Shown here one piece after another: positions 38,467-64,000 of a stretch of 64,000 nt of DNA (position 1 is its first letter; every line of letters begins with the position of its first letter). Position numbers and translations under genes: made by a program. The stretch is taken from assembly GCA_016214785.1 (NCBI GenBank), contig JACRNV010000056.1:6843-70842 (forward strand), written 5' to 3'. Source of the DNA: Methanobacteriota archaeon. Lineage in GTDB: Archaea > Thermoplasmatota > Thermoplasmata > SG8-5 > JACRNV01. The notes under the pieces are model-generated. The model was not told the DNA's origin. It did not search any database and saw only the letters and a program-made list of their open reading frames with translations.

Positions 38467-38578
38467 CAGAGAAAAATTATATTGACCGGAGAGACCGGCT
38501 ATTATATTCTCAATGTGCGTTTCAACGCCACCGATTAGTGGTTTAAATTTATCATAGTATAAACAAACCCGTTTAATT

Positions 38579-40001: not shown

Positions 40002-40811
40002 ATGGAGGAAAAAATGAGCCTTAAAAAAATTTTTGGATTATTACCCGAAAGAAGTATAAAGCATAAAATTAGATGTATTTACTACAATAATTTTAAGGAT
40101 ATCGATTTTCAACTATCGTATAAAAAGGGACATTATACTGTTACATTCAAAGATGGAATTGTAATTAAATTTTATAATAATCCCTGTGGAATTCTTACAG
40201 AAATTGTTAAAGAATATTTTCTTAAATATAAGTTGAAAAAAGGAGATATTGTGATTGATGCGGGGGCGTGGTTCGGCCCATTTGCCATATACGCGGCTTC
40301 ACAGATAGGCCCCACTGGCAAAGTTATTGTTTTTGAGCCGGATCCTTTAAATTACATCGATTTGAAAAATAACATTTTGTTAAATAATCTAAATAACATT
40401 GTAGCTATCAACAAAGGGCTTTGGAATACTAAATCGACCCTTCGATTTTTTTCAATAGGAAAATATTCTGGAGGATCACATATATTATTCGACGATTCTT
40501 TAAAAGAAAATAAAGGATACGTCGAAATTTCAGTTGTAAGTCTTGATGAAGAGTTGAAATTACAGGGAATTAGTCAAGTAGATTTTATAAAAATGGACAT
40601 TGAAGGGGCTGAAATAGAAGCTATTGAAGGGAGTAAAAATATACTGCAAAATAGAAATACTAATCTAGCAATCGCTACTTATCATATTCGAAATGGAGAG
40701 ATGACATGTAAAAAAGTAGAGCATTTGTTAAAATCATATGGATATTATGTGGAATCATTGAACCCGCACCATCTGACAACATATGCGACGCCCATTGATA
40801 GTCGAAATTAA
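40002..40811 (+). CDS. FkbM-family SAM-dependent methyltransferase
   Basis: VIDAGAWFGPFAIYAA (SAM-binding Gly-rich motif), FEPDPLNY, …FIKMDIEGAEIEAI…. Confidence 0.85.
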   Translation: MEEKMSLKKIFGLLPERSIKHKIRCIYYNNFKDIDFQLSYKKGHYTVTFKDGIVIKFYNNPCGILTEIVKEYFLKYKLKKGDIVIDAGAWFGPFAIYAASQIGPTGKVIVFEPDPLNYIDLKNNILLNNLNNIVAINKGLWNTKSTLRFFSIGKYSGGSHILFDDSLKENKGYVEISVVSLDEELKLQGISQVDFIKMDIEGAEIEAIEGSKNILQNRNTNLAIATYHIRNGEMTCKKVEHLLKSYGYYVESLNPHHLTTYATPIDSRN

Positions 40812-40834
40812 TTAGAGAATAAAAATGTAATATT

Positions 40835-42586
40835 TTATATGGCCCATATTGAACAATAACTTCTAATGTATATCAGTGATGCGGAATTACCAGATATAGT
40901 CTTACGTAGATGCCACTGTGGAGGGGGTAATTCAACACCTGAAAATCCGTTATTTTTTAAGGTTACAACTAGCTCGTAATGATTATTAATAATGAGAAGA
41001 GGATATTGAACTGTAAAATCAATTTGACCTATGCCCCTACCCTGTACTGCGCCCATGTACGTTGTAGCCATGGGGCCGTGAATGCTGTTGGTTGTCGATT
41101 CCCAGTAAATGCCTTCAATATTATCAGGCATTTCCCTATCGATATTATATTGTATTGAATAAAATGATAGGGCAATAGAGGCCACAACTAAAATGATTAC
41201 TATCTTTTTTATTTGATGCTTTTCTCGAAGTAAATTTATTGTTCCCCAGCCCACTAATATAGAAATAAATGGAGCTAGGTAAATATACGTTCTCTGTAGT
41301 TTTACGTCAACATAATATTCGCCTACTATTAGAAAGATCAGAAACATTGAAAGGCTCAATACTGCAGATAGCATTAGATAATTCCTGCGTACTTTCGAAA
41401 TCACAAGATATACGGATGGAACAATTATTACTAAAGGTAGAAGATTGATATGCCAAGCATACATTATCTGCTTTAATAAAGTAATAAAGGAAGTTTCTTT
41501 TGCTTCAGAACTAATGACTTCCCAGAGAGTCACGAAGCCTGACGGAGAAGTCGGTATGTCAACTCCAATTGTAAAAATTGTGACTAATAATAGAACGCCT
41601 AGTATCATCGGAATTCCTAACATTAGCAGGACCCACTGATGACTTTTTATTTTTTTACTCGGTAATGGTCCCAATTCTTTACTCTGAAAAATTGGTTTCT
41701 TCCGAACAAGATATAATATTGTAAGAAGCATAAAAATCGCTATTATCAGCCCGAGTATTTGTTCTTTAGTCATTTCTATACCAAATATCATTACGTCGAA
41801 ACGCTTTGAAATTATTCCCCCAAGGCGCATTATTGTTTCGACAGGTGCATTGTACCAGAAAAAGAATGACATAAGACCTCCAATTAGAGTGGAGAAAATT
41901 AGTGGTGTTTGGAAAGTATGAAAAAAATTTTGCTTGTTTTTAACAAAGGGTAACATAATAACAGAAATAATTACTACAATAGTAAGCCATATAACAGCAG
42001 TCGGTCTATGTGTTATAAAAATAGAAAAAACGAAAATTGTGCAAAAGATAAACTTAATTAGATCATCATTTACCACAGCCAATGTAAGGAAAATTAATAG
42101 TATAAGTATATTCCCATATGAGGAAGGTAATATATTCATCGGCCCATGCATATTTGTTCCAGAAATAAAAAGTGATCCACAAAAGCTGGCAATAAAACCG
42201 ATATAGCTATTATTTGTAATTTTTTTTGCCAGTAAATAAATTAAAATGCAAAAAAATACCCAGAATATAATTGATAAATATGATACATCCATAAAATTGA
42301 TTCCAGTTAATTCCCTTGCATTATTTAGGATTAATGTGAAGCCCGGTGGATAAAACTCATATGTTCCATTCAGCCGAAAGATATTGCTCCATGATGTGTC
42401 AAAATTCAATCTCTGCTCAAAATCAATTTGACGCATTTGAATGACCTGGCTCCAAAAATCTGGATTCGTTATGCCATTATAAGAATGATTTATATAATAC
42501 ACAGAATATTCTAGGGTACATACGAAAAATATTATTGTAAGTAGAAATAATAATTCGATTTTTCGCTTCATTTCGGCCTCCCACAT
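40835..42586 (-). CDS. Polytopic integral membrane protein (≥12 TM) with ~100-aa C-terminal soluble domain; possible polysaccharide polymerase or GT-C-like enzyme
   Basis: 583 aa, very hydrophobic, in the glycosylation island between glycosyltransferase genes. No family confidently recognised. Confidence 0.55.
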   Translation of the reverse strand: MWEAEMKRKIELLFLLTIIFFVCTLEYSVYYINHSYNGITNPDFWSQVIQMRQIDFEQRLNFDTSWSNIFRLNGTYEFYPPGFTLILNNARELTGINFMDVSYLSIIFWVFFCILIYLLAKKITNNSYIGFIASFCGSLFISGTNMHGPMNILPSSYGNILILLIFLTLAVVNDDLIKFIFCTIFVFSIFITHRPTAVIWLTIVVIISVIMLPFVKNKQNFFHTFQTPLIFSTLIGGLMSFFFWYNAPVETIMRLGGIISKRFDVMIFGIEMTKEQILGLIIAIFMLLTILYLVRKKPIFQSKELGPLPSKKIKSHQWVLLMLGIPMILGVLLLVTIFTIGVDIPTSPSGFVTLWEVISSEAKETSFITLLKQIMYAWHINLLPLVIIVPSVYLVISKVRRNYLMLSAVLSLSMFLIFLIVGEYYVDVKLQRTYIYLAPFISILVGWGTINLLREKHQIKKIVIILVVASIALSFYSIQYNIDREMPDNIEGIYWESTTNSIHGPMATTYMGAVQGRGIGQIDFTVQYPLLIINNHYELVVTLKNNGFSGVELPPPQWHLRKTISGNSASLIYIRSYCSIWAI

Positions 42587-43839
42587 ATTTTTTTCTTTGA
42601 TTCAATAGTAGAGTAATATAGTGCGAAAATTTTTTCAGCAATATTTTCCCACGAATATTGATGAGCATCTCTAGCTATTCGATCCCTATCCCATTCTCTT
42701 TCGATTGCTCTAATAACAATCTCGGATATATCTTCAGGCTTTTCTACAACAATTCCAGATTCTTTCGTCAATATTTCCTTAACTCCTCCGACATTGGTCG
42801 TGATTACTGGCAAACCGCATGATAGTGCCTCAAACATTACAGTAGGATTACCCTCCGCAGTGCTGGTTAAAATGAATAAATCCGCGGAATTATACCAATA
42901 GTTCAATTCTTCAATCGTTTTTTCTGTACTAACAATTGATACACATTTTGATAGCTGATAATCACCAACTAATTTTTTCAAGAATTTCTCTTCTGGACCT
43001 GTGCCAATAATAGTCAAAATGGAATTCGGATATTTCTCGTAGATTTTTCTATAGCTCTTAATTAAAGAATCATAAGCCTTTCTTTTTGTTAGAGACCCGA
43101 TTGATAAAAGTAAAAATTTATCCGTCGGAATATTTAGATATTTACGTGCTAATGTTTTATTCATAATATAGAAATGCTTTGATGGAAAACCATTGGGAAT
43201 AATATTAATTTTACTAGAAACTAAATCAGTTTCATATAGATTTTTATCTACTGAAGTAACTCGAATAATATTGGTAAATTTTTGGAGTAAATTCTGTATT
43301 TTGCTATCTTTCATTAAATCTGCGAATATGTTTTGATTTTCATGATTTGTCAGAACGATTGGAATATCGAAAAATTTTGTAAGTTCATATGCGACTATTC
43401 CCGAAGAAATGACGAAATGAGCATGAATTATATCTGGTCGATTATTTCTAAAAAGATTTTTTACTATCCATTTCGCAATTCGTTTAGAAGCCATTTGTTT
43501 AGAATAAAAAGAATGAAAATAAATAGGTTTAGGAAAATAAATTTCGATATTCTGATATACATAATTCTGTGCAATTATATCTCGTTGATGAGCGGGTGTG
43601 AGAAAACGCTTAAATATTGGTATATTTGGAACATATGGAGTCATAGCGATCACAGTGACTTTATTGAATTTTACACTTAATGCATCGACCTGTCCCTTGA
43701 CGAAGGCTCCACTAATAGGATCTCCAACATGGGGATACCTATTGCAAATGATTAATAACCAATTTAAATGAGTGGGGCTTTTTATGTTGTTCATCATTAG
43801 ACCTCTTGAATCAACATTATTCGAATATGATATAGCCAT
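42568..43839 (-). CDS. GT4-family glycosyltransferase
   Basis: …STAEGNPTVMFEALSCGLPVITTNVGGVKEIL…. Confidence 0.85.
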   Translation of the reverse strand: MAISYSNNVDSRGLMMNNIKSPTHLNWLLIICNRYPHVGDPISGAFVKGQVDALSVKFNKVTVIAMTPYVPNIPIFKRFLTPAHQRDIIAQNYVYQNIEIYFPKPIYFHSFYSKQMASKRIAKWIVKNLFRNNRPDIIHAHFVISSGIVAYELTKFFDIPIVLTNHENQNIFADLMKDSKIQNLLQKFTNIIRVTSVDKNLYETDLVSSKINIIPNGFPSKHFYIMNKTLARKYLNIPTDKFLLLSIGSLTKRKAYDSLIKSYRKIYEKYPNSILTIIGTGPEEKFLKKLVGDYQLSKCVSIVSTEKTIEELNYWYNSADLFILTSTAEGNPTVMFEALSCGLPVITTNVGGVKEILTKESGIVVEKPEDISEIVIRAIEREWDRDRIARDAHQYSWENIAEKIFALYYSTIESKKKICGRPK

Positions 43840-43852
43840 GTTTTTTTCGCAA

Positions 43853-44911
43853 TCATACAGACACCGATGATTTTTTTATATTTGAATTTTCTATAAGCTG
43901 TACCACGTATTCCGTTACATCTATTTTATCATTTAACATTTTTGCTTGCTTTTGTTTCCATACGCTCTTTAGATTGTGAACATTAAGCAATGAAGAAATC
44001 TCCTCGATTATCTTTTGAATATTTTTATCATTTCTGAGATGATAGTAGAGGAGACCATATTTTACTTGTTCAGAAATTGTCCCGGGCTTTAAATTATTAA
44101 CATATATAGCAGGAGTTCCTAATATCGCTGCCTCGGATGCCATTGTTGCTCCTTCACCAATGTATATCGTTGCGTAATAAAGTAAATCATGCATTTTTTC
44201 GGGAGGTATCTTCATCATATAATGCTTGTATTTACATTCAATTGGGGCTTCCGATGTAATAATTATCTTAACTTTTTTTTCAATTTCGGATATTAAGTTG
44301 TTGAAAGTAACCTCTTTCTCTTTATTATTACCGATATCGTGTGCTGCGTCCCATGATACAAATCTAATTATTACAAACTTCTCTCCTGGAGTGATGCCCG
44401 CTTCCTTTAATGTATCTGGGTTCGGTTTAAAATATTTAGGATGAAGGTAAGCTAATTCTTTGAAACCATTATATCTTACTTGCTTCTTTCCCAGGTTCTT
44501 CGTGTAGCAAACAGGCGTACATATCACTGTAATGAACGTATCCATCAGGAAATGCTCGAACTTCGAGTGCTCCGTATCATCGAAAACTATGGATGGCTTG
44601 CCGATTATCTTTCCTACATGCGCGACGTACACGTTCCCTACGCCACCCACGAGTACGTCTGGTTTGAACTTCTTTGCTATTCTTAATATCTTCCAATCCT
44701 TCTTTATCAATTCGACGGCCTTTTGGATTAGCGTGGATGGCGACTTTCCGATTACTTCGTATTCGAAACCGTAAGCTTTTAACAATTGTATTGCTACGTC
44801 CTTATCAGAGGTCGTTATCTTGCATACATGCCCACGCTTTTGTAACTCCCAGATAGTGTTCTTGAAGAAGTGCACCTGCGCCGGATGCCCGATGTTGAAA
44901 AGTATCCTCAT
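43853..44911 (-). CDS. DUF354-family protein (predicted glycosyltransferase/epimerase-like)
   Basis: Start MRILFNIGHPAQVHFFKNTIWELQKRGH, the hallmark N-terminus of DUF354. Overlaps the deacetylase-like stop (ATGA). Confidence 0.7.
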   Translation of the reverse strand: MRILFNIGHPAQVHFFKNTIWELQKRGHVCKITTSDKDVAIQLLKAYGFEYEVIGKSPSTLIQKAVELIKKDWKILRIAKKFKPDVLVGGVGNVYVAHVGKIIGKPSIVFDDTEHSKFEHFLMDTFITVICTPVCYTKNLGKKQVRYNGFKELAYLHPKYFKPNPDTLKEAGITPGEKFVIIRFVSWDAAHDIGNNKEKEVTFNNLISEIEKKVKIIITSEAPIECKYKHYMMKIPPEKMHDLLYYATIYIGEGATMASEAAILGTPAIYVNNLKPGTISEQVKYGLLYYHLRNDKNIQKIIEEISSLLNVHNLKSVWKQKQAKMLNDKIDVTEYVVQLIENSNIKKSSVSV

Positions 44912-51200: not shown

Positions 51201-54200
51201 ATGGTGCCATTGTTGGAATGCCTCTCATGCGGCAAGGCCACTCCCCCGCGCGTTTTGCTGTGCCCCGATTGCTGCGACTCCAGGGCCGCCAGCGACGCCC
51301 TCTGGTTCGCCGACCCCGACCTCCCGGGCGCCGGGGGGATTTCAAGGGCGTCGGGATGCAACACGCTCGTCCTCAGGGACGGCGCCGCCGCGCCGGAGAT
51401 TCTCGTAGCCGATAGCTCGGGGCGCTTCGAGGCGCCGAGGGACCTGAACTCAAGAGATCTCGAATCGGGGAAGTGGCAGAGCACGGCCCGGGCGGCCGTG
51501 TCCCTGGCCGCGATACCGGCAGTCATCCCGGACAAGGGCGCGGTCCATGTGGAGGCCGGCGACCACGCATGGCTGGAGCGCAGCCTGGGCTCGGCCATCA
51601 GGGATGGCCCGGGCGACGCCGAGAGGATAGACCCGCTCCTCGCGTGCAGGCTGGCCGCGCTCACGTGGCATTCCAGGGTCTCGCAGACCATAGTCCCCGC
51701 CCTGGGCGATGACTGGGTGGCGAGGTTCGACTCGGCCGCCGCGCGGCGCACGCTCGCGTGGCTCGACCTCGCGCTGAAGGCCAAGCCGTCGTGCCGCGAG
51801 GCCCTCAGGAGCAAGGGCGCTGTCCTGGGGATGCTCGGCAGGGAGGCCGCGGCCGCGGCGGTGTTCGAGCTGCTGTCGAAGGTCGAGGAGGACAGCGCCG
51901 ACGTCTGGCAGAAGCGCGGCAGGGCGCTGGCCAGCACCGGCGGCCAGGTCGACGCCCTGAGGTGCTTCGAGCGCGCCCTGGCGATGAGCAGGGACGACCC
52001 ATCGCTGTGGGGCGACAAGGGCGACTCGCTGGCCGCGCTCGGCAGGCACCGCGAGGCCGTGCGCTGCTACGACCGCGCGCTGGAGCTCTCGCCCGGCGAC
52101 CGCGCGCTCTCCGAAAAGAAGGCCGACGCCCTCACCCGCCTGGGGGACATAGAGCAGGCCGTCTCAATCTACGACAGCGTCAAGAGGCCATCGGTGCCGA
52201 GGAAGGCGCCGGATGCCCAGCCACAGAGGCCGGCCTGGCCCGCAGCGCCTAAGGAAGGCCCGCCGCGGGAGAAGATGGGCCGCGCCGAAATGCCCGCTCC
52301 GGCTCCAGAGCCCGCGAGGCCCGCAACGGAGGCGCGCCCCGGGCCATCATTCCCCGTCCCACAAGAAGTGCCGAAGCCCGCCGCGCCATTGATGGCCGAG
52401 GCGCCCGCGCCAGCTCCCATCGAGCAGCCAAAGCCGGCTGCGCCGGAGAGGAGGGCTCCGCCGCCATCGTTCTTCAGCCAGATGAAGGAAGCGGCTGGCA
52501 AGATAGAGCCCGAGAGAGAAGAGAGGGACGTCACCCCCGTTCCAATTTACCAGGCGCCGTTCATGGACCAACCGGCCCCGCCGCCGAGGAAGGAGCCGGC
52601 CGCGATACCGGAGGAAGAGGCGCTCCCCGGGTCGGACATGGCAGAGCCCCCGAGAAAGGACTCGCCCCTCGCGAAGGAGCAAGCCCTGGAGCGCAGGCTC
52701 GAGGCCGAGAAGGCCCTCCCGCCGGACAGGGAGAAAGCCCTGCCACCGATGAAGGAGGATCTCGACCGCCTCGACCGGGAGATAGACGAGCTCCTGCCCG
52801 AGGAGGCCGAGCCCAGGGAGAAGCCGCTGCCCGGGAAGCCGCTGGACGAGACCTTCCCCGAGGAGGCCGAGCCCGCGGCATCGAAGATAGAGAGGGAGCT
52901 GGACGGCTTCCTGCCGCAAGGGCCCGGCAAGCGAGCGGCCAAACGACCAACAAGGGACGCCGAGGCCGAGAGGATAGAGGACGACATCGACAACGTCATG
53001 CTCCCCTCGCAGGAGGTGGAGGATCTCTTCGACAAGGCCGAGGGCCTGCTCGACGAAGGCGAGTACGAGGCCGCGCTCTTCGCCTACGAGGCCGTGCTGC
53101 ACAAGGAGCCGAGGAACAACGACGCAATCGCGGGCAGGGCCGACTCCTTGGCCGGCATGGGCCGGACCGGCGAGGCCTTGAAGCTTCTCAACGAGGCGCT
53201 GTCCGGCGGCCCGGACAACATCGTACTCCTGGAAGCGAGGGGCGATGTCGAGATGCGCGCGGGCAATTACCGGGAAGCGCTCGATGACTACAACGCCTGC
53301 ATATCCACTGACCGCACGGACGAGATAATATGGGTGAAGAGGGGCGAGGCGGCGCTGAGGCTCAAGTCCTTCGACGACGCCCTCGCGTCGTTCAATCGGG
53401 CCGTGGAACTCGACCCCCAGGACCACATAGCGTGGATAGGCGTCGGCGACGCGCTCGTCGCGCTCGGCAAGGCGGACGAGGGGTACAAGTGCTACGACAA
53501 GGCCGTGGAGCTCGACGCGAACAGCGCCATCGCCTGGTACAAGAAGGGGCTCGTCCTCGACGATAAGGGGAGGTGGGGCGGCGCGCTCCAGTTCTACGAC
53601 AAGGCCATCGCCATCGACCCGCAGCTCGCCCCCGCGAGGCTCAAGGTCGCCAACATCTACATCTCCAACAACAGGTACGACCTCGCCATCAAGGCCTGCG
53701 ACGCGGCCCTGGCCGCCGACCCGCTGAGCGCGGAGTTCATGGTGCTGAAGGCCCGGGCGCTGAAGCTCATGGGCCGCTGGGGCGCGGCGATACAGGCGCT
53801 GGACGACATGGAGAGCGCCATCAAAGGCAACCCGCAGGCCCAGGTCCTTCGCGGCGAGCTGCTGATGGAGAAGGGGGAGCCCGATGCGGCGATGGAGTGC
53901 TTCGACCGCGCCCTGGCCAAGGACCAGGACAACGTGGACGCGCTCGTGCACAAGGGGCGGCTCCTCTACCAGAACGGCGGCTTCAACGAGTCCATCAAGC
54001 ATTTCAAGCGGGCGTCGCAGGCCGACCCCACTTCGGTCGAGGCGTGGCGCGGCCTCGCCGACTCGTTTAAAGACGTCAATGACGAGCAGAAGGCCCTCGA
54101 CGCCTACGACAAGGCGCTGGGGCTCGCGCCCACCGACGCCAAGCTGTGGCTGGCCAAGGGCATAGCATTGCAGGAGTTCGAGAAGTTCAGGGAAGCGATG

Positions 54201-54302
54201 AAGGCGTACGACAAGGCCCTGGGCCTCGACCCGAGGCTCGAGGAGGCGCGGCGCTGGAGGGAGCGGTGCGCCAAGCGCATAGATGAAGGGGGCGGGGCCT
54301 GA
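51201..54302 (+). CDS. 1,033-aa protein: N-terminal zinc ribbon, Pro/Glu-rich disordered linker, C-terminal array of ≥12 TPR repeats
   Basis: CLSCGK…CPDCC ribbon; ~300-aa PxxP/E-rich linker; TPR consensus (W-LG-Y, A-F-A-P) repeated from ~aa 590 to the end. Its stop overlaps the next ATG (TGATG at 54300-54304). Confidence 0.8.
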   Translation: MVPLLECLSCGKATPPRVLLCPDCCDSRAASDALWFADPDLPGAGGISRASGCNTLVLRDGAAAPEILVADSSGRFEAPRDLNSRDLESGKWQSTARAAVSLAAIPAVIPDKGAVHVEAGDHAWLERSLGSAIRDGPGDAERIDPLLACRLAALTWHSRVSQTIVPALGDDWVARFDSAAARRTLAWLDLALKAKPSCREALRSKGAVLGMLGREAAAAAVFELLSKVEEDSADVWQKRGRALASTGGQVDALRCFERALAMSRDDPSLWGDKGDSLAALGRHREAVRCYDRALELSPGDRALSEKKADALTRLGDIEQAVSIYDSVKRPSVPRKAPDAQPQRPAWPAAPKEGPPREKMGRAEMPAPAPEPARPATEARPGPSFPVPQEVPKPAAPLMAEAPAPAPIEQPKPAAPERRAPPPSFFSQMKEAAGKIEPEREERDVTPVPIYQAPFMDQPAPPPRKEPAAIPEEEALPGSDMAEPPRKDSPLAKEQALERRLEAEKALPPDREKALPPMKEDLDRLDREIDELLPEEAEPREKPLPGKPLDETFPEEAEPAASKIERELDGFLPQGPGKRAAKRPTRDAEAERIEDDIDNVMLPSQEVEDLFDKAEGLLDEGEYEAALFAYEAVLHKEPRNNDAIAGRADSLAGMGRTGEALKLLNEALSGGPDNIVLLEARGDVEMRAGNYREALDDYNACISTDRTDEIIWVKRGEAALRLKSFDDALASFNRAVELDPQDHIAWIGVGDALVALGKADEGYKCYDKAVELDANSAIAWYKKGLVLDDKGRWGGALQFYDKAIAIDPQLAPARLKVANIYISNNRYDLAIKACDAALAADPLSAEFMVLKARALKLMGRWGAAIQALDDMESAIKGNPQAQVLRGELLMEKGEPDAAMECFDRALAKDQDNVDALVHKGRLLYQNGGFNESIKHFKRASQADPTSVEAWRGLADSFKDVNDEQKALDAYDKALGLAPTDAKLWLAKGIALQEFEKFREAMKAYDKALGLDPRLEEARRWRERCAKRIDEGGGA

Positions 54303-57300
54303 TGTCCAGCGCCGAGCGGCTCCTTGGCAGCCTGCGCGACCTGTCCGACCCGGAGTTCCGGGAGGTCCTCACGAAGCTGCTGAAGGGAATGGGGCTGAGC
54401 GCCAGGAACGTCCGCACCGTCGGCCCGGGGCTGGAGATAGAGGCCGTCCTGGACAGCAACTACGATGCGTACTTCGTCCTCGCGAGCCGCGCGCAGTCGC
54501 AGGCCAGGCCCGAGGAGCTGCAGAAGGGCGTCGAGCGCATGCGCTCCATGGGCATCAGGAAGGGCATTTTCTTTTTACCGGGCGGGGCGACGAAGGAAGC
54601 CCAGGAGTACGCCTCGCAGTTCGACGTCTCGGTCGCCGGCATGGACGACATGTCGGCCCTGCTGGACAAGTTCGATCTCTCCGGGGACGTCGAGCGCAAG
54701 GCGTCGAAGCGCTTCCTGGAGCGCGAGGGGGACAGGTACCTCCCGAGCATCGACAAGCTCGAGACCTCGATGAAGTGGGGGAACGACTTCTACGCCTCCG
54801 GCAACTACCGGAAAGCCATAGACTACTTCGAGCAGGCTGCGGCGCTGAAGCCCAGCTACGACCTGGCCTGGCTGATGCTCGGCAACTGCCACCACGCGCT
54901 CGGAGATTACGACAAGGCAGCCGAGGCTTTCGAGGGCGCGCTCGAGCGCAACCCCGAGAGCGAGGAGGCGTGGTTCGACCTCGGAAACACCCTGTACTTC
55001 CTGGGCAGGCACGACGACGAGCTCGCCTGCTACGACAAGGCCATCGCGCTCAACAAGTCCTACGACAGGCCGTGGAACAACAAGGGCGCGACGCTGCTCG
55101 AGCTGGGGAAGTTCGAGGAGGCCGTCCTGTGCTTCGACAAGGGCCTGAAGGTTGACCCGAAGAACGAGAAGGCGCTGAACAACCGCGGCGTGGCGCTGAA
55201 GAAGCTCGGCAGGATGCGCGACGCGATCGAATCGTTCGACCGGGCGCTCGCCATCGCCCCCGACTATCCGGACGCCATGCTGAACAAGGGCCTGGCCCTG
55301 CAGGAGATGGGCGAATACCTCGCGGCGGTCAAAGCGTACGACGAGGTCCTGGCTAGGGCGAAGTCCGCCGAGCTCTACTGCCAGAAGGCGACGGCGCTCA
55401 TGGCCGCCGAGAGGCATCTGGCGGCCATCGAGTCCGTCGATGCCGCGCTCATCCTCAGGCCCGGCTGGGACGTCGCATTGGATTTGAAGAAGAAGGCCAA
55501 GAGGGCGCTCGACAGGCAGTCGAAGCTCCGGAAGGGCGGGGAGCCCGAAGAACCCCCGAAGCCGACTGAAATTGTCAAGCCGGTGCCAATCACAATGCCG
55601 AAGCCCGTGGAAGCCCCCGAGCCTGAGGTCGCCGCGCCCAAGGTCGAAGAGCCGAAGCTTCCACCGCCGCTCGTCCCTCGAACCGAGATAGGCGGGCCGG
55701 CGGTCGTCGGGTCTCCGCAACCTGTGGAAGCGGTAGAGCCCGCCGGAGCGCCCGTTGCGAAGGCCGAGGGCTCCCCGATTGCGCCGAAGCCAGAGGCGCC
55801 ATGCGCGTCCTGCGGCAAGATGGCCCCGGCCGGCTCGAAGTTCTGCCCCCACTGCGGCGAGCCCATGGCCAGGGAGGGGTTCGTGTGCTCGGACTGCGGC
55901 GCGGAGGTGCTGGAGAGCTACAGGCACTGCCCGTCGTGCGGGGCGGCGCTCGATGAGGGCGAGGAAGAGGGGCTGACCGGGGGCGAGAGGGCCTTCGAGA
56001 AGGTCGAGGATGCGATAGCAAAGGAGCGGTTCGAAAGGACCGTCGACCACCTCTTCGCCGAGGGGGAGCTGAGAAGGCGCCTCGGGGACACCGAGGGCGC
56101 GCTCGACATGCTGCAGAAGGCCTCGGTGCAGATGGTCATACCGTTCGTGCAATCCGATGACCCGAAGGTCTACACCCACGTGGGGATGTGCAACATGGCC
56201 CTGGGCAGGCACGAGGACGCGCTCGAGGCATTCGAGCAGGCCCTGAACCGTGAGCCGGACAACATGCTGGCCATGCACGGCAGGATAGAGGCATTGACGT
56301 TGATGGAGCGGCACGCGTCGGCCAGCGACGCGCTCGACGAGCTGCTCGAATCGGGCGAGAGCGCGAGGCTCTGGCTCATGAAGGCCGACCTGATGGCGCG
56401 ATGGGGCAGGCACGCCCAGGAGGTCGAGGCGCTCGATCGCGCGGCCGAGCTCTCGGGAGAGATAGAGGACCTCTGGGACGTGGAGGGCATCGCCCTCGCG
56501 CTGGACGGCAAGGACGAGGACGCCCTCCTGTGCTTCGACCGCTCCGTGCAGGTCAACCCGGACTACTGGGAGGGGTGGAACAACAGGGGCGTGCTCCTAG
56601 TCGAGGCCGGGGACGTGCCGCTGGCGACGAAGTACGTAGACCGCGCCATCGACGTCGAGCCCGCGGCCTTCGAGGCCTGGGCGAACAGAGCGCACATCAT
56701 CGCTTCCGAGGGCCGCTTGGACGAGGCCGTGGAGTGCATGGAGGAGGCGCTGCTCCTGCGGAAGGCGTCGTGGGCGTGGGCGCAGAAGGGCATTTACCTT
56801 TTGAAGGGCGACCTGGTGGAAAAGGCCCTGGATGCGGCCGAGAGCGGCCTGAAGCTCGATGACAGGGACGCGGGCTGCTGGAACGTCTGCGGCCTCGCAT
56901 TGCTGAGGAAGGGGAGGCTCGCGGACGCCCTGGAGGCGTTCGAGAAGGCCGCGGCCATCGCGCCCGGATTCGAGGACGCGAAGCGCAACCTCGCGCTCGT
57001 CCGGGACAGGATTGAGGGGGACGGGCTGAAGTGCCCCAAATGCGGCGAGAGCGCGTCGCCGGGGGACAAGAGGTGCAGGAAGTGCGGCGGGCGGCTTGCG
57101 CGCGACGCCAGGGAGAACGCCCTGGCGAAGGAGATGGAGAGGGCCATCGCCGAGGACGTCGAGCCCGAGCAGAAGAAGGCGCAGAAGCCCAAGCGCAAGG
57201 AGAAGAGGGCGCCGTCGCGCGAGGAGTTCGTGTCCCTGCTGATGACCGTGCCCGGGATAGGCTACGCCAAGGCCAACGACCTGTGGGAGGCGGGCTTCAG

Positions 57301-57400
57301 GAGCGGGGACGACGTCGCGCGCGCGGACATGGCCATGCTGACGAGGGTGAGGGGCATCACGCCGCACCTGGCCAGGAAGATGAAGAAGGGGCTGGGGTAG
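54302..57400 (+). CDS. 1,032-aa multidomain protein: N-terminal Mrr-cat-like restriction-endonuclease-fold domain, TPR block, double zinc ribbon, second TPR block, zinc ribbon, C-terminal helix-hairpin-helix
   Basis: N-terminus …LTKLLKGMGL…VGPGLEIEAV…YFVLASRAQ…KGIFFLPGGATKEAQEYA…VAGMDDMSALL follows the Mrr_cat layout (the catalytic Lys position reads Arg). CASCGK…CPHCGE / CSDCGA…CPSCGA ribbons. CPKCGE…CRKCGG. …LLMTVPGIGYAKANDLWEAGF…LTRVRGITPHLARKM helix-hairpin-helix. Confidence 0.8.
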   Translation: MSSAERLLGSLRDLSDPEFREVLTKLLKGMGLSARNVRTVGPGLEIEAVLDSNYDAYFVLASRAQSQARPEELQKGVERMRSMGIRKGIFFLPGGATKEAQEYASQFDVSVAGMDDMSALLDKFDLSGDVERKASKRFLEREGDRYLPSIDKLETSMKWGNDFYASGNYRKAIDYFEQAAALKPSYDLAWLMLGNCHHALGDYDKAAEAFEGALERNPESEEAWFDLGNTLYFLGRHDDELACYDKAIALNKSYDRPWNNKGATLLELGKFEEAVLCFDKGLKVDPKNEKALNNRGVALKKLGRMRDAIESFDRALAIAPDYPDAMLNKGLALQEMGEYLAAVKAYDEVLARAKSAELYCQKATALMAAERHLAAIESVDAALILRPGWDVALDLKKKAKRALDRQSKLRKGGEPEEPPKPTEIVKPVPITMPKPVEAPEPEVAAPKVEEPKLPPPLVPRTEIGGPAVVGSPQPVEAVEPAGAPVAKAEGSPIAPKPEAPCASCGKMAPAGSKFCPHCGEPMAREGFVCSDCGAEVLESYRHCPSCGAALDEGEEEGLTGGERAFEKVEDAIAKERFERTVDHLFAEGELRRRLGDTEGALDMLQKASVQMVIPFVQSDDPKVYTHVGMCNMALGRHEDALEAFEQALNREPDNMLAMHGRIEALTLMERHASASDALDELLESGESARLWLMKADLMARWGRHAQEVEALDRAAELSGEIEDLWDVEGIALALDGKDEDALLCFDRSVQVNPDYWEGWNNRGVLLVEAGDVPLATKYVDRAIDVEPAAFEAWANRAHIIASEGRLDEAVECMEEALLLRKASWAWAQKGIYLLKGDLVEKALDAAESGLKLDDRDAGCWNVCGLALLRKGRLADALEAFEKAAAIAPGFEDAKRNLALVRDRIEGDGLKCPKCGESASPGDKRCRKCGGRLARDARENALAKEMERAIAEDVEPEQKKAQKPKRKEKRAPSREEFVSLLMTVPGIGYAKANDLWEAGFRSGDDVARADMAMLTRVRGITPHLARKMKKGLG

Positions 57401-59593: not shown

Positions 59594-61312
59594 CTATGCC
59601 TGGGCCCCCCCGCCCATGGCGCTCTTGAAAGTCTCGATGTCTGCCTTGGCGTCCTTGAGCTTGGGCACCACTTCGGAGAACGCCCCCTTCCTCAGGTCTC
59701 CCTTTGCCTCCTTGAGCAGCTTGGACGCGCGTGCTACGTTCGCGCCTGAGAGCCTGAGCTCCTCGGCGGTGTTCTCGAGCGCCGAGAGCTCCTTGAGCAG
59801 CCTGACCTTCAGCGCGTCTGTCAGGGCCTTCTGGCCTTGCAGGATGTAGGTGACGGCCTTCTTGACCTCCTTCCTCGTGCCGTGCGCCACTGCCTCGGAG
59901 ATGAGCCTCTTGCCTTCCGTGACGTCGAGCTCGAGCTCCTTCGCAAGCCCGAGCATGGGCTTCAGCTCCGAAGCGACCGATGACAGGATTCTGTAAAGCT
60001 CTTTCTCGGAGATGTTGTCGAGGTCCTCTATCCTCACGGCCCCGGACGCCGCCTCCTCCTGCGGCTCGCCCTGCGCCGGCGTTTCCGCGGGCTCGGGCGC
60101 GGCCTCGGCCGGCTGCGCCCGTTCGGGCGTTGGCTGGGAGACCTCTTCCGAAATCGCGGTCTGAGCTGGCGCTTCCTCGGGCTGAGCGGGCGCTATACCC
60201 GGCTGCGCCGTTTCGGCGGGCGCGCCCTCGGCGGGGATCGTGAAATCCTTTCCGCAAACGGTGCACGATTTGCCGTCGGCCGTGAGGGGGCCGTTGCATA
60301 CCGTGCAGGCCCTCTCCTCGCCCAGCAGCTCCCTCTCGAAGGCCTTGACCTCCTCGGCCGACGCGCTCGGCACTATGTCCGGCGCCTCGCCGGTGCCGGT
60401 CTTCGGGAGCAGGTCCGTGACTCCCGCGGCGGATATGACGTGCTTGTAGCATTCGCCCGCGCTCTTGCTGTCCCCCATCCGCGTGAAGAGCCCGGCCATG
60501 GCGATCCATGCCGCGTCGTACTTGGGGTCGATCTCGGTGGCCATCTCGTAGGACTTGATTGCCTCGTCATTGCGTCCCATCTTCGCCAGCATGGAGCCGC
60601 GGGCGTACCAGAGGTCGGTGTTCTTGGTGTCCAGCTCAATCATGCGCTCGTAATGGGCCAGCGCCTTCTCCTCGCTCCCCTCCACTTTCGCGTTCTGGAA
60701 CTCCTTGCCGCACTCGAAGCACGAAGTCTCGAAGATGCTGAGGATCGTGCCGCAAATCGGGCAGGCCTGCTCGGCCTCTATGTCGTCGGCGCTGAGCCGC
60801 GTCTTGCGCAGCCCGTCGATGTCGGAAATCTGGAGCGCGCGCTTGATCGACGCCGCCGACCTCTTGCCGATGCCAGGAACGTTCATGAGCTGCTTCACGG
60901 ACGCGGCCTTGAGCTTGCCCAGGTCGGTGAACCCCGCCTCGTAAAGGGCTTTGGCCTTCAGGTTCCCCACGCCGGGCAGCTTGACGAGCTCCTTTATCTC
61001 CTCTGCCACGAGCTCGTCTATCTTCTGCATCGCGGCCTCCTCGTGGTCGGTCTCGTCGGCCCCTTCCTCCGGAGGGGTGGCCCGGGGCTCGGCCCGCTCG
61101 ATGGCCTCTGCCTGCTCCCCATCCTCCTGGAATTCGGCCCCGCAGCCCGGACACACCTTCGCGTTTGCCTCGACGAGCTTGCCGCACATCGGGCAGCCGA
61201 AGGTCTGGTCCTCGTCGCTTAGGACGGTCTTGCAGATGGGACAGAGCATCGCATCGCTGGGAATGTTGCTGCCGCAAACGGGACAACGCATGCTATTTCC
61301 TAAATACGGCAT
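59594..61312 (-). CDS. ~570-aa protein with multiple zinc ribbons, tandem helix-hairpin-helix motifs, TPR repeats, an Ala/Pro/Glu-rich linker and a C-terminal coiled coil
   Basis: Start MPYLGNSMRCPVCGS (alternative MRCP at 61291). CPVCGS…CPICKT, CPMCGK…CPGCGA, CPICGT…CFECGK, CTVCNG…CTVCGK. …LVKLPGVGNLKAKALYEAGF…LMNVPGIGKRSAASIKRAL helix-hairpin-helix. TPR (…WYARGSMLAKMGRNDEAIKSYEMATEIDPKYDAAW…). ORFs in other frames here are GC noise. Confidence 0.75.
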   Translation of the reverse strand: MPYLGNSMRCPVCGSNIPSDAMLCPICKTVLSDEDQTFGCPMCGKLVEANAKVCPGCGAEFQEDGEQAEAIERAEPRATPPEEGADETDHEEAAMQKIDELVAEEIKELVKLPGVGNLKAKALYEAGFTDLGKLKAASVKQLMNVPGIGKRSAASIKRALQISDIDGLRKTRLSADDIEAEQACPICGTILSIFETSCFECGKEFQNAKVEGSEEKALAHYERMIELDTKNTDLWYARGSMLAKMGRNDEAIKSYEMATEIDPKYDAAWIAMAGLFTRMGDSKSAGECYKHVISAAGVTDLLPKTGTGEAPDIVPSASAEEVKAFERELLGEERACTVCNGPLTADGKSCTVCGKDFTIPAEGAPAETAQPGIAPAQPEEAPAQTAISEEVSQPTPERAQPAEAAPEPAETPAQGEPQEEAASGAVRIEDLDNISEKELYRILSSVASELKPMLGLAKELELDVTEGKRLISEAVAHGTRKEVKKAVTYILQGQKALTDALKVRLLKELSALENTAEELRLSGANVARASKLLKEAKGDLRKGAFSEVVPKLKDAKADIETFKSAMGGGAQA

Positions 61313-61443
61313 ATAAGGTAACCAGCATATATTTTTTCTGTCTGGCCTGCGCCATGCAACAATTTGACAGGGTAACGACGGGGGACTGTGAAAATTGGTG
61401 GTGCGAAACCAATTATCTATGCTATCCACAGGGTATGATCTTC

Positions 61444-61494
61444 TATCGCGACGAGAAGACACCGGCAGAGTGATTCCTCGTCGCGGGCACGGAC
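61444..61494. repeat. Conserved-stem hairpin unit 1 (ATCGCGACGAGA-17 nt-TTCCTCGTCGCGGGCACGGACT)
   Basis: 9-bp GC-rich stem CGCGACGAG/CTCGTCGCG with 22-nt loop. The second unit has identical stem and tail but an unrelated loop. Confidence 0.65.
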
Positions 61495-61532
61495 TTGGTG
61501 CGCAAGTCCTACCTTTGCATCTATTTCACTTA

Positions 61533-61583
61533 TATCGCGACGAGAGGATGCTTATAAAATGTTTCCTCGTCGCGGGCACGGAC
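61533..61583. repeat. Conserved-stem hairpin unit 2
   Basis: atcgcgacgagaggatgcttataaaatgtttcctcgtcgcgggcacggact; stems and 3' tail identical to unit 1, loop divergent. Confidence 0.65.
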
Positions 61584-61652
61584 TAATCCTGTGCACTCTT
61601 TCAGATTAGTCCTACCATTTTACTTTGACCTAATTGCACAGAGAAAGTAAAA

Positions 61653-61815
61653 TGGACCCATCGGGATTTGAACCCGAGGCCTCCTGCTGTTTTGGCTCCC
61701 CAACCCCAGTCCGGCGGAATTGGCGAGTGCCAAATCCTTTCCGTGGGGGTCAAGGGGGATTCCCGAGGGAATCCCCTTGCAAAGCAGGCGATCTTCCGGG
61801 CTGATCTATGGGCCC
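61653..61815 (-). tRNA. tRNA-Ala (anticodon TGC) with an 89-nt intron at the canonical 37/38 position (intron ≈ 61689..61777)
   Basis: Exons fold as GGGCCCA-TA-GATC-AGCCCGGAA-GATC-G-CCTGC-TTTGCA^A-GCAGG-AGGCC-TCGGG-TTCAAAT-CCCGA-TGGGTCC-A. The G3:U70 pair is the tRNA-Ala identity element. The intron contains the hairpin GGGGATTCCCTCGGGAATCCCC. A T-rich stretch (TTTTACTTTCT) follows the 3' end. Confidence 0.8.
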
Positions 61816-61886: not shown

Positions 61887-64000
61887 ATGTGTGATGTTTT
61901 CGCGCTAAACGGGGGCATCTTGGAGGCTTTCGAATTCAGGGAGCCGCGGTTCGTTGGCAGGACCGCCGAGCTCGATACCCTGACCAGGCATCTAGGCGAA
62001 GCGCTCAGCGGCCGTGGAAGGACGCTCATCGTGACCGGGGAGCCGGGAATGGGCAAGTCCAGGCTCGTCAGGGAGTTCCTTAGGAAACACGGGGAGGAGG
62101 GCGGCTGCCTCGTCATCAACGGGGCGGCTCTTGCCGATTCTGCGCATCCGTTTCAGCTGTTCTCAAGCGCGCTCCGTGAAACGACAGCCGCCCCGCTTTT
62201 CCAAGAGACCGAGTTTGTCTCTTTTTCCACAGTCCTCGCCCTCGATGGCCAAGGGCGTGTCCTGGCATGCGTGACTTCAAAGACAGGCTCCGATTTCGAA
62301 GCTGGAAGGCTTGCGAAGATGATCTCGGGCGTCCAGGACTTCGTCTGCGACTCGTTCTTTAAGCAAACCCCTGAAAAAAAGGGCGGGCTAGACCGGCTCG
62401 AGTACGGCGATGCCAAGGTGCTGATGGAGCGCGGCGACGGCTTTGTCATCTGCGCCCTGTTCAAAGGGGGTGAGAATCCGGAGATGCGAGAGCATCTCAG
62501 GAGGACCGTTCGGGAGATGGAGGCGCTCGGAGGGGGGGAAGGCGGCAGAACAGTATATTCGCTTCAATCGGCATTGACCCATCTCGTCGACCTCAGAATG
62601 AAGGTTCGCCGGGACCTGGAGCGCGTGAACCTCGATGCCGAGAGGAACAGAATCTCAGGGGAAATATTGAAAGCCCTCTCTAGGATCGCCGATGATAAGC
62701 CCCTCATCCTGGCGCTCGAGGACGTCCATTGGGCCGACGAGTCCTCGGCATTCGTCTTCAACTACCTCTGCAGGAACGCCCGCCGCGAGAAGATGTTAGT
62801 GGTGGCGACATCGCGGCCCAGGGAGAATTCCCCCATCCAGGGAGTCGTCCGCGGCCTGCTCGATGACGGAATGCTCACCGAGATAGAGGTCAGGGAGCTT
62901 GGAGTCGGCCTCGCCGCCGACATCGTGAATGACATCTTCCAGGAAAACTCGATACCCCGGTCGTTCATTGAAGAACTGTCGAAACGCTGCGAGGGCAACC
63001 CACTATTCCTGATCGAGACCCTGAGGCAGATGGCCGCGGACGGGGCGATCGCCTCGGGGGGGGAGGGCCACCATCTTGCAAAGGAGGGGTTCGCGATACC
63101 TGGCACCGCCGGGGAGATGGTCAAACGGAGGCTCGAATCGCTCGATCCCGATGCCATGGCCGTCGCCGAGTACGCTTCCTGCATCGGGAGGGTGTTTGAG
63201 GTCAATGCAGCGCTTTCGATACAGAGCATCCGTGATGGCCCATTGGCTCTCAAGCGGCTGCGCGATTCCGGCCTTCTCGTCAAAAGAGGGGGAAAGATGG
63301 AATTCGCCCACGAGCTCTTCCGAGAGGCGATATACGGCGGAATCGGGGAGAGATGGAGGCTCGCGTACCACAGAGCCCTGGGCGAGTACTACGAAAGAGC
63401 GCACGCGGACGACCTTGACGCCGTGCTCTACGATCTGGCCAGTCATTTCTCGAGGAGCGCCTGCCACGAGAAGGCATACGATTACTGCACCAGGGCGGCG
63501 GAGAAGGCGGAGGGCGCTTACGCCCCTGAGCAGGCGATTGCGTTTTTCGAGGCGTCGCTCCGGTCCTTGGGCACGCTCCGAGAGAAGCCCAAGGGGGCGG
63601 ACCCGGGGCGCATCCGCCTCAGGATTGGGCAGGACCTTCAGCTCATCGGCCAGCTGGACAAGGCCGAAGCCTCGTACAGGGCGGTCATCGAGGCATCCTC
63701 TGCGGATGGGGACAAGGGGCTCCTCGCGGACGCCTACTCGGGGCTCGGGAACGTCCTGTGCCACAAGCCAGAATACGAGACGGCGCTCGACTTCTCGCAG
63801 AAGGCGATTGCCATTTATAAAAAGCGCGATGATAACATCGGTGTTTTCAAGGCCATGGGGAGCATCGGCTACGTGCACTACTACCGCGGCGAATACGACA
63901 AGGCGATGGAATGCTTCGATGCCCAGCTCGCCCTGGCCGAGAAGGACGGGGACAAGCTCCGCGTCGGCAGAGCCCTGAGCGACATGGGGGGCATCTACTG
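61887..64000 (+). CDS. STAND-type P-loop NTPase with a Roadblock/LC7-like domain inserted between Walker A and Walker B, followed by C-terminal TPR repeats (Avs-like architecture); 3'-truncated by the window end
   Basis: ATG 61887. …FVGRTAELDTL…TLIVTGEPGMGKSRLV (Walker A). ~150-aa insertion …VLALDGQGRVLACVTSKTG…DAKVLMERGDGFVICALF… (Roadblock-like). LILALEDVHWADESS (Walker B). Then helical/TPR region. No stop before 64000, so it is absent from the ORF track. Alternative-frame ORFs 63003..63878 and 63076..63978 are noise. Confidence 0.75.
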   Translation, partial: MCDVFALNGGILEAFEFREPRFVGRTAELDTLTRHLGEALSGRGRTLIVTGEPGMGKSRLVREFLRKHGEEGGCLVINGAALADSAHPFQLFSSALRETTAAPLFQETEFVSFSTVLALDGQGRVLACVTSKTGSDFEAGRLAKMISGVQDFVCDSFFKQTPEKKGGLDRLEYGDAKVLMERGDGFVICALFKGGENPEMREHLRRTVREMEALGGGEGGRTVYSLQSALTHLVDLRMKVRRDLERVNLDAERNRISGEILKALSRIADDKPLILALEDVHWADESSAFVFNYLCRNARREKMLVVATSRPRENSPIQGVVRGLLDDGMLTEIEVRELGVGLAADIVNDIFQENSIPRSFIEELSKRCEGNPLFLIETLRQMAADGAIASGGEGHHLAKEGFAIPGTAGEMVKRRLESLDPDAMAVAEYASCIGRVFEVNAALSIQSIRDGPLALKRLRDSGLLVKRGGKMEFAHELFREAIYGGIGERWRLAYHRALGEYYERAHADDLDAVLYDLASHFSRSACHEKAYDYCTRAAEKAEGAYAPEQAIAFFEASLRSLGTLREKPKGADPGRIRLRIGQDLQLIGQLDKAEASYRAVIEASSADGDKGLLADAYSGLGNVLCHKPEYETALDFSQKAIAIYKKRDDNIGVFKAMGSIGYVHYYRGEYDKAMECFDAQLALAEKDGDKLRVGRALSDMGGIY

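Follow-up and report, generated by a model that had tools for sequence, protein, structure and literature searches.

A predicted longin-like domain inserted in the P-loop core of an archaeal STAND NTPase

Introduction

STAND NTPases normally signal via terminal effector domains. Those of the MalT/AfsR/PH0952 type combine an AAA_16 nucleotide switch, recognized by an hhGR arm, a Walker A motif, a Walker B motif of the pattern hhhhEDxHW, a GxP motif and a winged-helix histidine, with a TPR solenoid; in these proteins 93-139 aa separate Walker A from Walker B and a separate effector is present, i.e. an HTH, SARP, cyclase or kinase domain. The antiviral Avs proteins likewise join an NTPase to a C-terminal repeat sensor, together with an N-terminal effector (a nuclease, protease or similar). 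Death-fold and TIR domains are used as adaptors for eukaryotic and bacterial STANDs, and in Apaf-1-type STANDs a helix-loop-helix lines the oligomer hub. A whole domain between Walker A and Walker B is found in RuvBL1/RuvBL2 (Rvb1/2), where this domain, DII, is a client/cofactor-binding module.

The archaeal gene described here lies at the end of the window, i.e. the whole 64,000-nucleotide stretch of DNA that was analysed. Its product shares all of the listed motifs and the TPR solenoid with the MalT/AfsR/PH0952-type proteins, but its family differs from them in a Walker A-Walker B spacing of ~226 aa that accommodates a longin-like insert, and in having no separate effector. RuvBL1/RuvBL2, which are among the Foldseek matches of the modelled core, are a precedent for a domain inserted in an AAA+-type core; however, they belong to another AAA+ clade, carry an OB-like insert and form hexameric rings in chromatin complexes, and there is no evolutionary link to the protein described here.

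The gene and its STAND core

The reading frame at 61887-64000 (+ strand) is open through the window end for 704 codons, and its full-length product is the 1010-aa protein MBI5001503.1 ('Euryarchaeota archaeon'; P0001 below), with 100% identity. An earlier note on this DNA had described the gene as truncated by the window edge, and this proves correct: the window carries the 5' ~70% of a STAND NTPase-TPR gene, as judged from the reading frame, the identity to P0001 and the alignment of homologs, and P0001 supplies the part encoded past 64000, with TPR families matching to its end. The frame has its first ATG at 61887; the record MBI5001503.1 has TTG 61920 as its start codon, which gives an N-terminal length matching that of the homologs.

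In the product, Pfam AAA_16 aligns as two separated segments at 85.6 bits (E 7e-24; cut-off 32.6 bits). Motif conservation was scored in a 56-sequence alignment, with residues numbered from TTG 61920 and all features on the + strand. The N-terminal arm FVGRTAE (hhGRxxE; 61950-61970) has nearly invariant G13, R14 and E17, and no domain precedes it. Walker A, GEPGMGKS, occupies residues 40-47 (62037-62060), with G40, G43, G45 and K46 invariant, and Walker B, LILALEDVHWADESS, occupies residues 262-276 (62703-62747), includes LILALEDVHW in the hhhhEDxHW pattern, and has nearly invariant E267, D268, H270, W271 and D273. These are followed by ATSRP at the sensor-1 position (62805-62819; R299 invariant, at the end of strand beta4), by GNPLF, the GxP motif of the helical domain (62994-63008; G359 and P361 invariant), and by EFAHELF of the winged-helix domain (63300-63320), whose nearly invariant H464 corresponds to the histidine of the STAND 'MHD' motif. 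The predicted model of the nucleotide-binding, helical and winged-helix domains (NBD through winged helix, together the NOD; pLDDT 90.4) has the expected order beta1-alpha-beta2...beta3-beta4-beta5, helical, winged-helix. Foldseek with this model retrieves PH0952, MalT, CED-4, Apaf-1, Avs3 and plant NLRs, with 6mfv and 8bob as best structures and a probability of 1.00 for PH0952, MalT, Apaf-1 and CED-4, at TMq values for the predicted model of up to 0.46.

The C-terminal TPR solenoid starts at 63417 and continues to 64000 (+ strand), with TPR_12 at nt 63612-63824 and TPR_7 at 63852-63956, and in P0001 it extends for ~310 further residues past the window, made up of TPR families to the end. The Pfam families of this part are TPR_12, TPR_7, TPR_10 and, weakly, TPR_MalT, in agreement with the original description of the C-terminal half as TPR-like. 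Family scans of P0001 find no domain that is neither NOD nor TPR besides the insert, and after the NOD only TPR families. PF28559, present in the precomputed lists for archaeal homologs only, was considered as a model of the insert and rejected; it is TPR_SusR.

Thus a P-loop core with Walker A and Walker B, in the STAND sense of Leipe, Koonin & Aravind (2004), is joined to a GxP helical domain and a winged-helix histidine, the NOD being seen on a predicted model, and to a C-terminal repeat (sensor) region. P0001 is a cytoplasmic nucleotide switch of the STAND class and resembles MalT, AfsR and PH0952 in its AAA_16-TPR make-up; the initial assignment to the STAND NTPases is upheld by the AAA_16 and Foldseek matches and by the conserved hhGR, GxP and winged-helix histidine. 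The named members of the family come from Thermoplasmatota/'Euryarchaeota' MAGs, and the best sequence matches outside it are bacterial AAA_16-TPR relatives with cyclase, SARP, LuxR and kinase fusions. HTH and BTAD domains are both present in these bacterial relatives; P0001 and the archaeal homologs show neither, i.e. no LuxR-type HTH or SARP. The family thus far shows no separate effector, and P0001 itself has no N-terminal one.

The domain between Walker A and Walker B

In P0001, 223 aa separate Walker A from Walker B. Of 50 archaeal homologs, 47 had both motif patterns matched, and these have a spacing of 202-231 aa (mode 226); it is 103-139 aa in bacterial AAA_16-TPR relatives where both motifs matched, and ~93 aa (counted by eye) in an insert-less Methanomassiliicoccus relative of the same phylum. 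In the alignment the extra residues follow PFQLFSSAL, the helix after strand beta2, and precede the pre-Walker B helix. From the spacing statistics, the alignment gap and the insert-less relative within the phylum it follows that the insertion is real, and it is conserved across the archaeal family.

In comparison with insert-less relatives the whole extra segment spans approximately residues 88-238 (nt ~62181-62633), and the domain itself, as delimited by alignment, model and structural matches, residues ~92-224 (62193-62591, + strand). Modelled alone (pLDDT 81.8, pTM 0.76) it is predicted to have the order beta-beta-beta, helix, beta-beta-beta, helix, helix, with a sequence signature consisting of M..V..F..DSF in the central helix, L.RLEYG..K.L.E.G and G.E.P.M. 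It is also modelled with high confidence within the NOD, so that the structure prediction recommended in the earlier note yields a discrete domain. By these models the insert is a discrete ~130-aa domain of the Roadblock/longin superfold, set into the NBD after strand beta2 and before the Walker B strand; the structural support here and below comes from predicted models throughout.

The earlier note had proposed a Roadblock/LC7-like insertion in the P-loop domain. The discrete insert of the Roadblock/longin superfold in that position is retained, but the order of elements is that of a longin and the Robl_LC7 threshold is missed. The longin fold has the order beta-beta-alpha-beta-beta-beta-alpha-alpha, in which the sheet is flanked by the central helix on one side and by the C-terminal helices on the other (PMC10933270). 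The insert model shows this element order and sheet placement, with no N-terminal helix and two C-terminal helices, and its best structural matches are longin domains rather than canonical Roadblock/LC7. The Roadblock order alpha1-beta1-beta2-alpha2-beta3-beta4-beta5 begins with a helix, present in MglB, LAMTOR2/3 and DYNLRB (PF03259) and absent from the insert, whose two C-terminal helices set it further apart. Structural matches include MglB, LAMTOR2/3, Mon1-Ccz1, TRAPP and AP sigma/mu, all GTPase-platform domains.

No significant sequence-level homology links the insert to Roadblock or longin proteins; its fold is assigned from the predicted model and its element order, together with a recurrent register of sub-threshold Robl_LC7 matches. 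Profile searches, clear for AAA_16, gave no Roadblock match with Pfam or NCBIfam anywhere in the fragment, and Robl_LC7 has no match at E<=10 in the window's copy, the gathering cut-off being 23 bits. Homologous copies score 13-15 bits with Robl_LC7 (E 0.004-0.08), all below the gathering cut-off, in a consistent and recurrent register. Searching PDB sequences with insert profiles (A1 and the broader A4) gave matches at chance level only, and hhalign of profiles A3 and A4 with human DYNLRB1 (query sequence 1z09_A) was not significant (probability <=3%), though the A4 alignment has the topologically expected register. Identity to the longins (Sec22b, VAMP7, Ykt6, the AP sigma/mu N-terminal domains, Mon1-Ccz1, TRAPP subunits and the Asgard longin 8yqg) is 3-15%. 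Unlike these longins, the domain sits inside another domain or on membrane proteins. Prokaryotic longin-type domains have been discussed for, and placed in, Asgard archaea in the context of eukaryogenesis (PMC10933270), whereas the named carriers of the insert domain are Thermoplasmatota.

Occurrence of the domain in other proteins

A profile of the insert domain matches 4468 protein clusters (50% identity) at E<=1e-3 and 2018 at E<=1e-10, a large family of apparent longin/Roadblock fold with neither a Pfam model nor a curated family. Many of the examined matches are non-STAND proteins, the named ones again from Thermoplasmatota, and these carriers are of the following types: giant single-pass surface proteins of the order ectodomain-TM-domain, with the domain on the cytoplasmic side; polytopic 4-TM membrane proteins with tandem pairs of the domain; and multi-copy giants with 2-3 copies. 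The positions kept in both STAND and non-STAND copies are those of the central helix and the strand motifs; Roadblock proteins dimerise through this helix (PMC10933270). These sequence matches mark the longin-like domain as a mobile module, of which the window has no second copy.

STAND paralogs occur in pairs at 5 of 15 loci, of which four count as independent because L001 and L083 are syntenic. At 6 of the 15 related loci the next gene is either a paralog or one for a surface protein. At one locus (L087) a two-copy giant adjoins two STAND paralogs; membrane-type and STAND carriers are usually not neighbours, L087 being the 1 case among 80 metagenome loci, mostly short contigs.

Possible functions of the insert

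The reading that we favour, and to which we give about an even chance, is that P0001 would be a TPR-gated STAND switch with the inserted longin-like domain as its output or adaptor module. The TPR solenoid would hold the switch off until a ligand or partner binds, and nucleotide exchange would then drive self-association of the NOD. By analogy, the insert may sit at the site that matches the Apaf-1-type helix-loop-helix at the hub, so that oligomerisation would bring insert copies together, and these might pair through the conserved central helix as longin/Roadblock domains generally do. Pairing could be with the counterpart domain of a paralogous STAND, with that in the tail of a surface or membrane protein, or with some other shared partner. 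The tandem copies on 4-TM proteins, the STAND paralog pairs and the L087 arrangement make pairing of insert domains plausible; the rarity of membrane-type and STAND carriers as neighbours and the lack of a conserved operon partner in the homologous loci examined weigh against the output or adaptor role. If this role is correct, the family's only candidate output has been grafted into the ATPase core, an unusual solution that makes a structural study worthwhile.

The presence of the domain both in a STAND core and on surface-protein tails is more suggestive of a signalling module, as yet undescribed, than of an antiviral gene. In a more far-reaching form, which we regard as possible but doubtful, the domain would be a homotypic adaptor of a so far undescribed Thermoplasmatota signalling system, linking the tails of giant adhesin-like receptors and polytopic membrane proteins to cytosolic STANDs with the same domain; it would then play the role that death-fold/TIR domains play elsewhere. 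If so, a large longin-type family would be placed outside Asgard archaea and eukaryotes. The domain's position just inside the membrane on giant surface proteins offers a concrete, testable handle on possible surface-to-cytoplasm information transfer in these little-studied archaea.

Rather than an output, the insert could be a cis-acting regulator of its own P-loop, GAP/GEF-like or autoinhibitory, that controls nucleotide turnover or blocks oligomerisation until the TPR region is engaged. Roadblock/longin platforms regulate the nucleotide states of P-loop GTPases (PMC10933270), and the analogy with MglB, Ragulator and the longin GEFs acting on such GTPases, the embedding of the domain in the NBD between Walker A and Walker B and its confident modelling in the NOD context are consistent with this role. 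However, the same domain with the same motifs is common in proteins that have no P-loop, so its conserved function cannot be specific to a P-loop in cis, and the protein would be left without an output domain; we consider this explanation unlikely, while still deserving of some weight.

Somewhat less probable again is that a Ras-like small GTPase uses the insert as its platform (cf. MglB-MglA, Ragulator-Rag and Mon1-Ccz1-Rab7), with the STAND coupling TPR sensing to the GTPase switch. The structural matches to GTPase-platform domains listed above, and the binding of small GTPases by Roadblock/longin dimers in a conserved orientation (PMC10933270), speak for it, but no small GTPase gene is present in the window or adjoins the gene in six homologous loci, and the only GTPase near homologs in these six loci is a universal one of DRG/Obg type, in two syntenic loci. 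That the insert is a small-molecule sensor, GAF/PAS/profilin-like, with the NOD integrating a metabolite signal, appears improbable.

Genomic context and the antiviral reading

An intron-bearing tRNA-Ala(UGC) gene at 61653-61815 (- strand) was found by Rfam and missed by ARAGORN. A tRNA was thus rightly noted beside the gene, but the integration context proposed along with it is rejected, since no integrase occurs among the eight neighbouring ORFs scanned (46.5 to 61.5 kb) and the GC content around the gene shows no break. The neighbouring cluster, described at first as nuclease-fold/TPR, contains TPR, zinc-ribbon and helix-hairpin-helix domains and no nuclease family. In six sequence-distinct homologous loci (four syntenic contexts) the neighbours are mostly housekeeping genes; here and at those loci they include ArcS-like, deoxyhypusine synthase, PolB, RNR, AspRS and peptidase M3 genes, and synteny is kept between genomes for L001/L083 and for L082/L084. 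At one homolog locus, L169, toxin-antitoxin genes lie nearby.

The weakest of the alternatives, and a very improbable one, is the 'Avs-like' antiviral role of the earlier note, by which a viral protein would be sensed by the TPRs and the insert would act as a novel effector. In its favour are the arrangement of an NTPase followed by C-terminal TPRs, the distant structural match to Avs3, the expansion of the family into paralogs and the genes at L169, but there is no N-terminal nuclease, protease or other effector, since Walker A begins at residue 40, and only TPR lies beyond the NOD; apart from a weak mad8 match (E 1e-4) and a generic TPR model, PADLOC finds no defence family, Avs included; the housekeeping neighbours, kept synteny and even GC content argue against a defence island or mobile element, with neither a conserved partner nor an integration signature found; in sequence the protein stands closest to AAA_16-TPR proteins of the regulator type, with cyclase, SARP or LuxR fusions; and the insert domain is absent from the viral contigs scanned.

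The one neighbour that recurs at the homologous loci belongs to a secreted repeat-protein family, whose members lack the insert domain. A scan of genome contigs with the NOD alignment gave, among the matches listed, mostly bacterial relatives, the useful loci being L002, L003 and L007.

The gene and its STAND core

The frame opening at ATG 61887 contains no stop in its 704 codons up to the window edge, and its product, which the earlier note could follow only to nucleotide 64000, is now complete: a database search recovered MBI5001503.1 (here P0001), a protein of 1010 aa that is 100% identical to the window ORF, comes from a "Euryarchaeota archaeon" MAG and is labelled only "tetratricopeptide repeat protein". 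That record begins at TTG 61920 rather than at ATG 61887, and this putative start leaves a ~10-residue lead ahead of the FVGR motif, as in homologs; upstream of Walker A there is no domain, only a short hhGR arm.

The first assignment of the protein as a STAND NTPase with TPRs is borne out. Pfam AAA_16 matches P0001 at 85.6 bits, split over two separate stretches, and the core carries Walker A (GEPGMGKS, nt 62037-62060, + strand), Walker B (LILALEDVHWADESS, nt 62703-62747, + strand), ATSRP with an invariant Arg at the sensor-1 position, the GxP motif GNPLF, and EFAHELF with its nearly invariant His. An AlphaFold model of the NOD (nucleotide-binding, helical and winged-helix domains; residues 1-500, 56 aligned sequences) reaches pLDDT 90.4 and pTM 0.81 with the three domains in the expected order, and is matched by Foldseek at probability 1.00, with modest TM-scores, to PH0952 (6mfv), MalT (8bob), CED-4 and Apaf-1 as well as to Cdc6/ORC, Avs3 and plant NLRs. 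TPR families occupy the remainder of the protein. P0001 shows every feature of STAND membership that can be assessed in silico, and its overall anatomy is very probably that of a STAND switch with intact motifs, in which TPRs form the sensor, a longin-like domain is inserted and a terminal effector is lacking.

A longin-type domain between Walker A and Walker B

The spacing from Walker A to Walker B is 223 aa in P0001 and 202-231 aa (mode 226) in 47 of 50 archaeal homologs having 33-44% identity across the NOD; it is 103-139 aa in bacterial AAA_16-TPR relatives in which both motifs were matched, and in the sequence of a Methanomassiliicoccus relative a count by eye gives about 93 aa. The extra residues form a single block in the alignment, between the post-beta2 helix (PFQLFSSAL) and the helix leading into Walker B, and the block is present in all paralogs examined from related genomes. 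The insertion is real and conserved. RuvBL1/2, in which a client-binding domain likewise separates the two Walker motifs, set a precedent and are also among the Foldseek matches of the NOD model.

The insert adopts a fold when modelled alone (39 aligned inserts; pLDDT 81.8, pTM 0.76), in which a long helix stands between two sets of three strands and two further helices follow, and the same elements recur at pLDDT around 90 within the NOD model, so that structure prediction upholds a discrete domain. In structural comparison the model scored 10.0-10.7 against the longin domains of Sec22b, VAMP7, AP mu/sigma and Ykt6 (112-116 aligned residues), 9.3 against a lokiarchaeal longin domain (8yqg), 9.2 against MglB, 9.1 against LAMTOR3, and 7.7-8.4 against bacterial and Asgard Roadblock proteins; the Foldseek ranking agrees. 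Longin domains differ from Roadblock domains in lacking the N-terminal helix and having an extra C-terminal helix (PMC10933270). Unlike Roadblock, the modelled insert has no N-terminal helix and has two C-terminal ones, and its predicted topology is longin-type.

The sequence-level signal for either family is faint. A Pfam scan gave no match for the window's own copy, profile searches against PDB sequences found nothing, and hhalign of the insert alignments against DYNLRB1 was not significant; Robl_LC7 matched 7 of the 39 copies from STANDs and 3 of the 10 from other proteins in consistent register, at 13-15 bits (cut-off 23). The earlier description of the insert as Roadblock-like is therefore correct at the level of the superfold, given the structural matches and the longin element order, but not in topology, which is longin-type, and the Robl_LC7 scores fall below the cut-off. 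No curated model covers the family. PF28559, considered as a possible model, is instead TPR_SusR; among the precomputed Pfam lists, those of the archaeal homologs alone contained it.

The domain in other proteins and at homologous loci

Searched against 1.84 billion representative proteins, the insert profile yields 4468 clusters at E<=1e-3, 2018 at E<=1e-10 and 89 at E<=1e-30. The best 150 of the 4468 clusters are mostly STANDs of ~950-1050 aa with the domain at residues ~85-200; other hosts come from the remainder of these 150 and from 80 metagenome loci, the named examples being one Methanomassiliicoccales MAG and one "Candidatus Thermoplasmatota" MAG. Giant single-pass surface proteins (L127:6209-10459, L124:3212-10378, L160:7154-10372, L105:4252-6921 and about 40 metagenome loci of this kind) have a signal/anchor segment near residue 28, a ~1200-aa ectodomain of Ig-like, cadherin-like, PKD and CarboxypepD_reg domains, and a TM segment near residue 1240, followed by the longin-like domain and a ~55-aa tail as the sole cytoplasmic part. 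An NHL-propeller protein likewise ends with a TM segment and then the domain, hosts with 7 and 8 TM segments carry one copy each, 4-TM hosts (L114, L120, L159) carry two in tandem, and hosts of 1100-2400 aa carry two or three about 500 aa apart. The inserted domain is a module that membrane proteins and surface proteins in the same phylum share. Three multi-copy giants (P0121, P0160, P0162; copies ~500 aa apart) also bear CARDB and a C-terminal DUF5915, and a simple hydropathy scan detected no TM segment in them. The domain was absent from the viral contigs scanned.

STAND and non-STAND copies alike conserve the central helix (M..V..F..DSF), the L...G strand, the E in the strand after it and the G ahead of the following helix. 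In Roadblock proteins the corresponding central helix is the dimerisation element (PMC10933270).

The synteny of the homologous loci is maintained between related genomes. At 5 of 15 loci (four independent, L001 and L083 being syntenic) another paralog with the insert is encoded no more than a few kb away, and at L087 a two-copy giant adjoins two STAND paralogs. Secreted repeat proteins of 680-2400 aa, with BNR, InlB B-repeat, CARDB and GLUG repeats, are encoded beside the STAND gene at 6 of 15 loci, directly downstream on the same strand at four (L092:3243-9497, L095:12729-15218, L096:12713-17324, L102:4214-7738); the other two loci are L089:2775-5504 and L087:12877-20031. Seven of the eight share the ending PGEGYW[VI]HVPxDTxWT[IV][ND]W; the L087 protein is similar to the other seven but lacks it. 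This motif matched no family in a Pfam scan of six of the proteins and does not occur in the window, and none of the eight has a longin-like domain.

Proposed function of the insert

As a mechanism, the TPRs would keep the NOD in the off state, ligand binding would let the switch exchange its nucleotide and self-associate, and its output would be the insert. Pairing of like domains could join paralogous STANDs to one another or to receptor tails, or could take place around a partner that both share. Output through like-domain pairing is the best explanation overall, with about an even chance of being right. It is favored because longin and Roadblock domains serve as homo- or heterodimeric platforms, because the conserved surface of the domain is the dimerisation helix, and because copies occur in tandem or on adjacent paralogs. 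The insertion point, beta2-beta3, presumably corresponds to the place of the helix-loop-helix (ISM) segment, which in Apaf-1-type assemblies lines the hub.

That the insert, lying between the Walker motifs, is instead a cis-regulator of the STAND's own P-loop is unlikely, and a role as a small-GTPase platform is somewhat less likely still, there being no small GTPase within the window. A metabolite sensor is improbable. The Avs-like defence gene proposed in the earlier note is slightly more improbable again, since P0001 has no terminal effector, PADLOC found no defence family, and the homologous loci have housekeeping surroundings, including PolB, a DRG-type GTPase, peptidase M3, ribonucleotide reductase and AspRS.

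Neither a longin/Roadblock domain inside a STAND NTPase nor such a domain family in Thermoplasmatota was found described in the full-text literature, of which coverage was incomplete; prokaryotic longins have been treated as an Asgard feature (PMC10933270). P0001 is rated a STAND NTPase whose insertion is unprecedented, and the inserted domain a new family of the longin/Roadblock superfold. Structurally the insertion is a surprise, and it raises a question that can be tested.

Neighbourhood within the window

An intron-bearing tRNA-Ala(UGC) gene (61653-61815, - strand; Rfam 48 bits) is divergent to the STAND gene, 72-105 nt upstream, confirming the tRNA first noticed there. A G3:U70 pair is present and the intron, of 91 nt, sits at position 37/38; this tRNA gene marks the organism as archaeal. 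It was missed by ARAGORN, which reports only tRNA-Asn at 21199-21272. The supposed integration context did not hold up, with no integrase family among the neighbours and GC flat around the gene at ~61%; nor did the "nuclease-fold/TPR cluster", as a family scan of the neighbouring genes gave TPR, zinc ribbon and HhH and no nuclease family. These neighbours are a zinc-ribbon/HhH/TPR protein (59594-61462, - strand), an ArcS-like protein (DUF5591 and PUA), two ~1030-aa TPR/zinc-ribbon/HhH proteins and deoxyhypusine synthase. Three of the neighbours are large, uncharacterised proteins: in those encoded at 54302-57400 (+) and 59594-61462 (-), TPR arrays occur together with double zinc ribbons and helix-hairpin-helix motifs, and the 25 families listed for 51201-54302 (+) are all of TPR type.

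A two-hairpin element occurs twice in tandem (61440-61516 and 61529-61619) between the tRNA-Ala 3' end and the point where the gene at 59594-61462 starts, with conserved stems (CGCGACGAG..CTCGTCGCG; GGACT..AGTCC), variable loops and minus-strand folding z-scores of -4.6 and -4.7; the element has no Rfam match and no further copy in the window or in 168 loci. Farther away, 32500-44500 is a sharp low-GC island (31-35% GC, 41% in the 32-34 kb boundary window, vs ~61% elsewhere) encoding a Polysacc_synt/MurJ-like flippase, five GT4-type glycosyltransferases, an FkbM methyltransferase and a DUF354 protein, and looks like a laterally acquired glycan-biosynthesis island.
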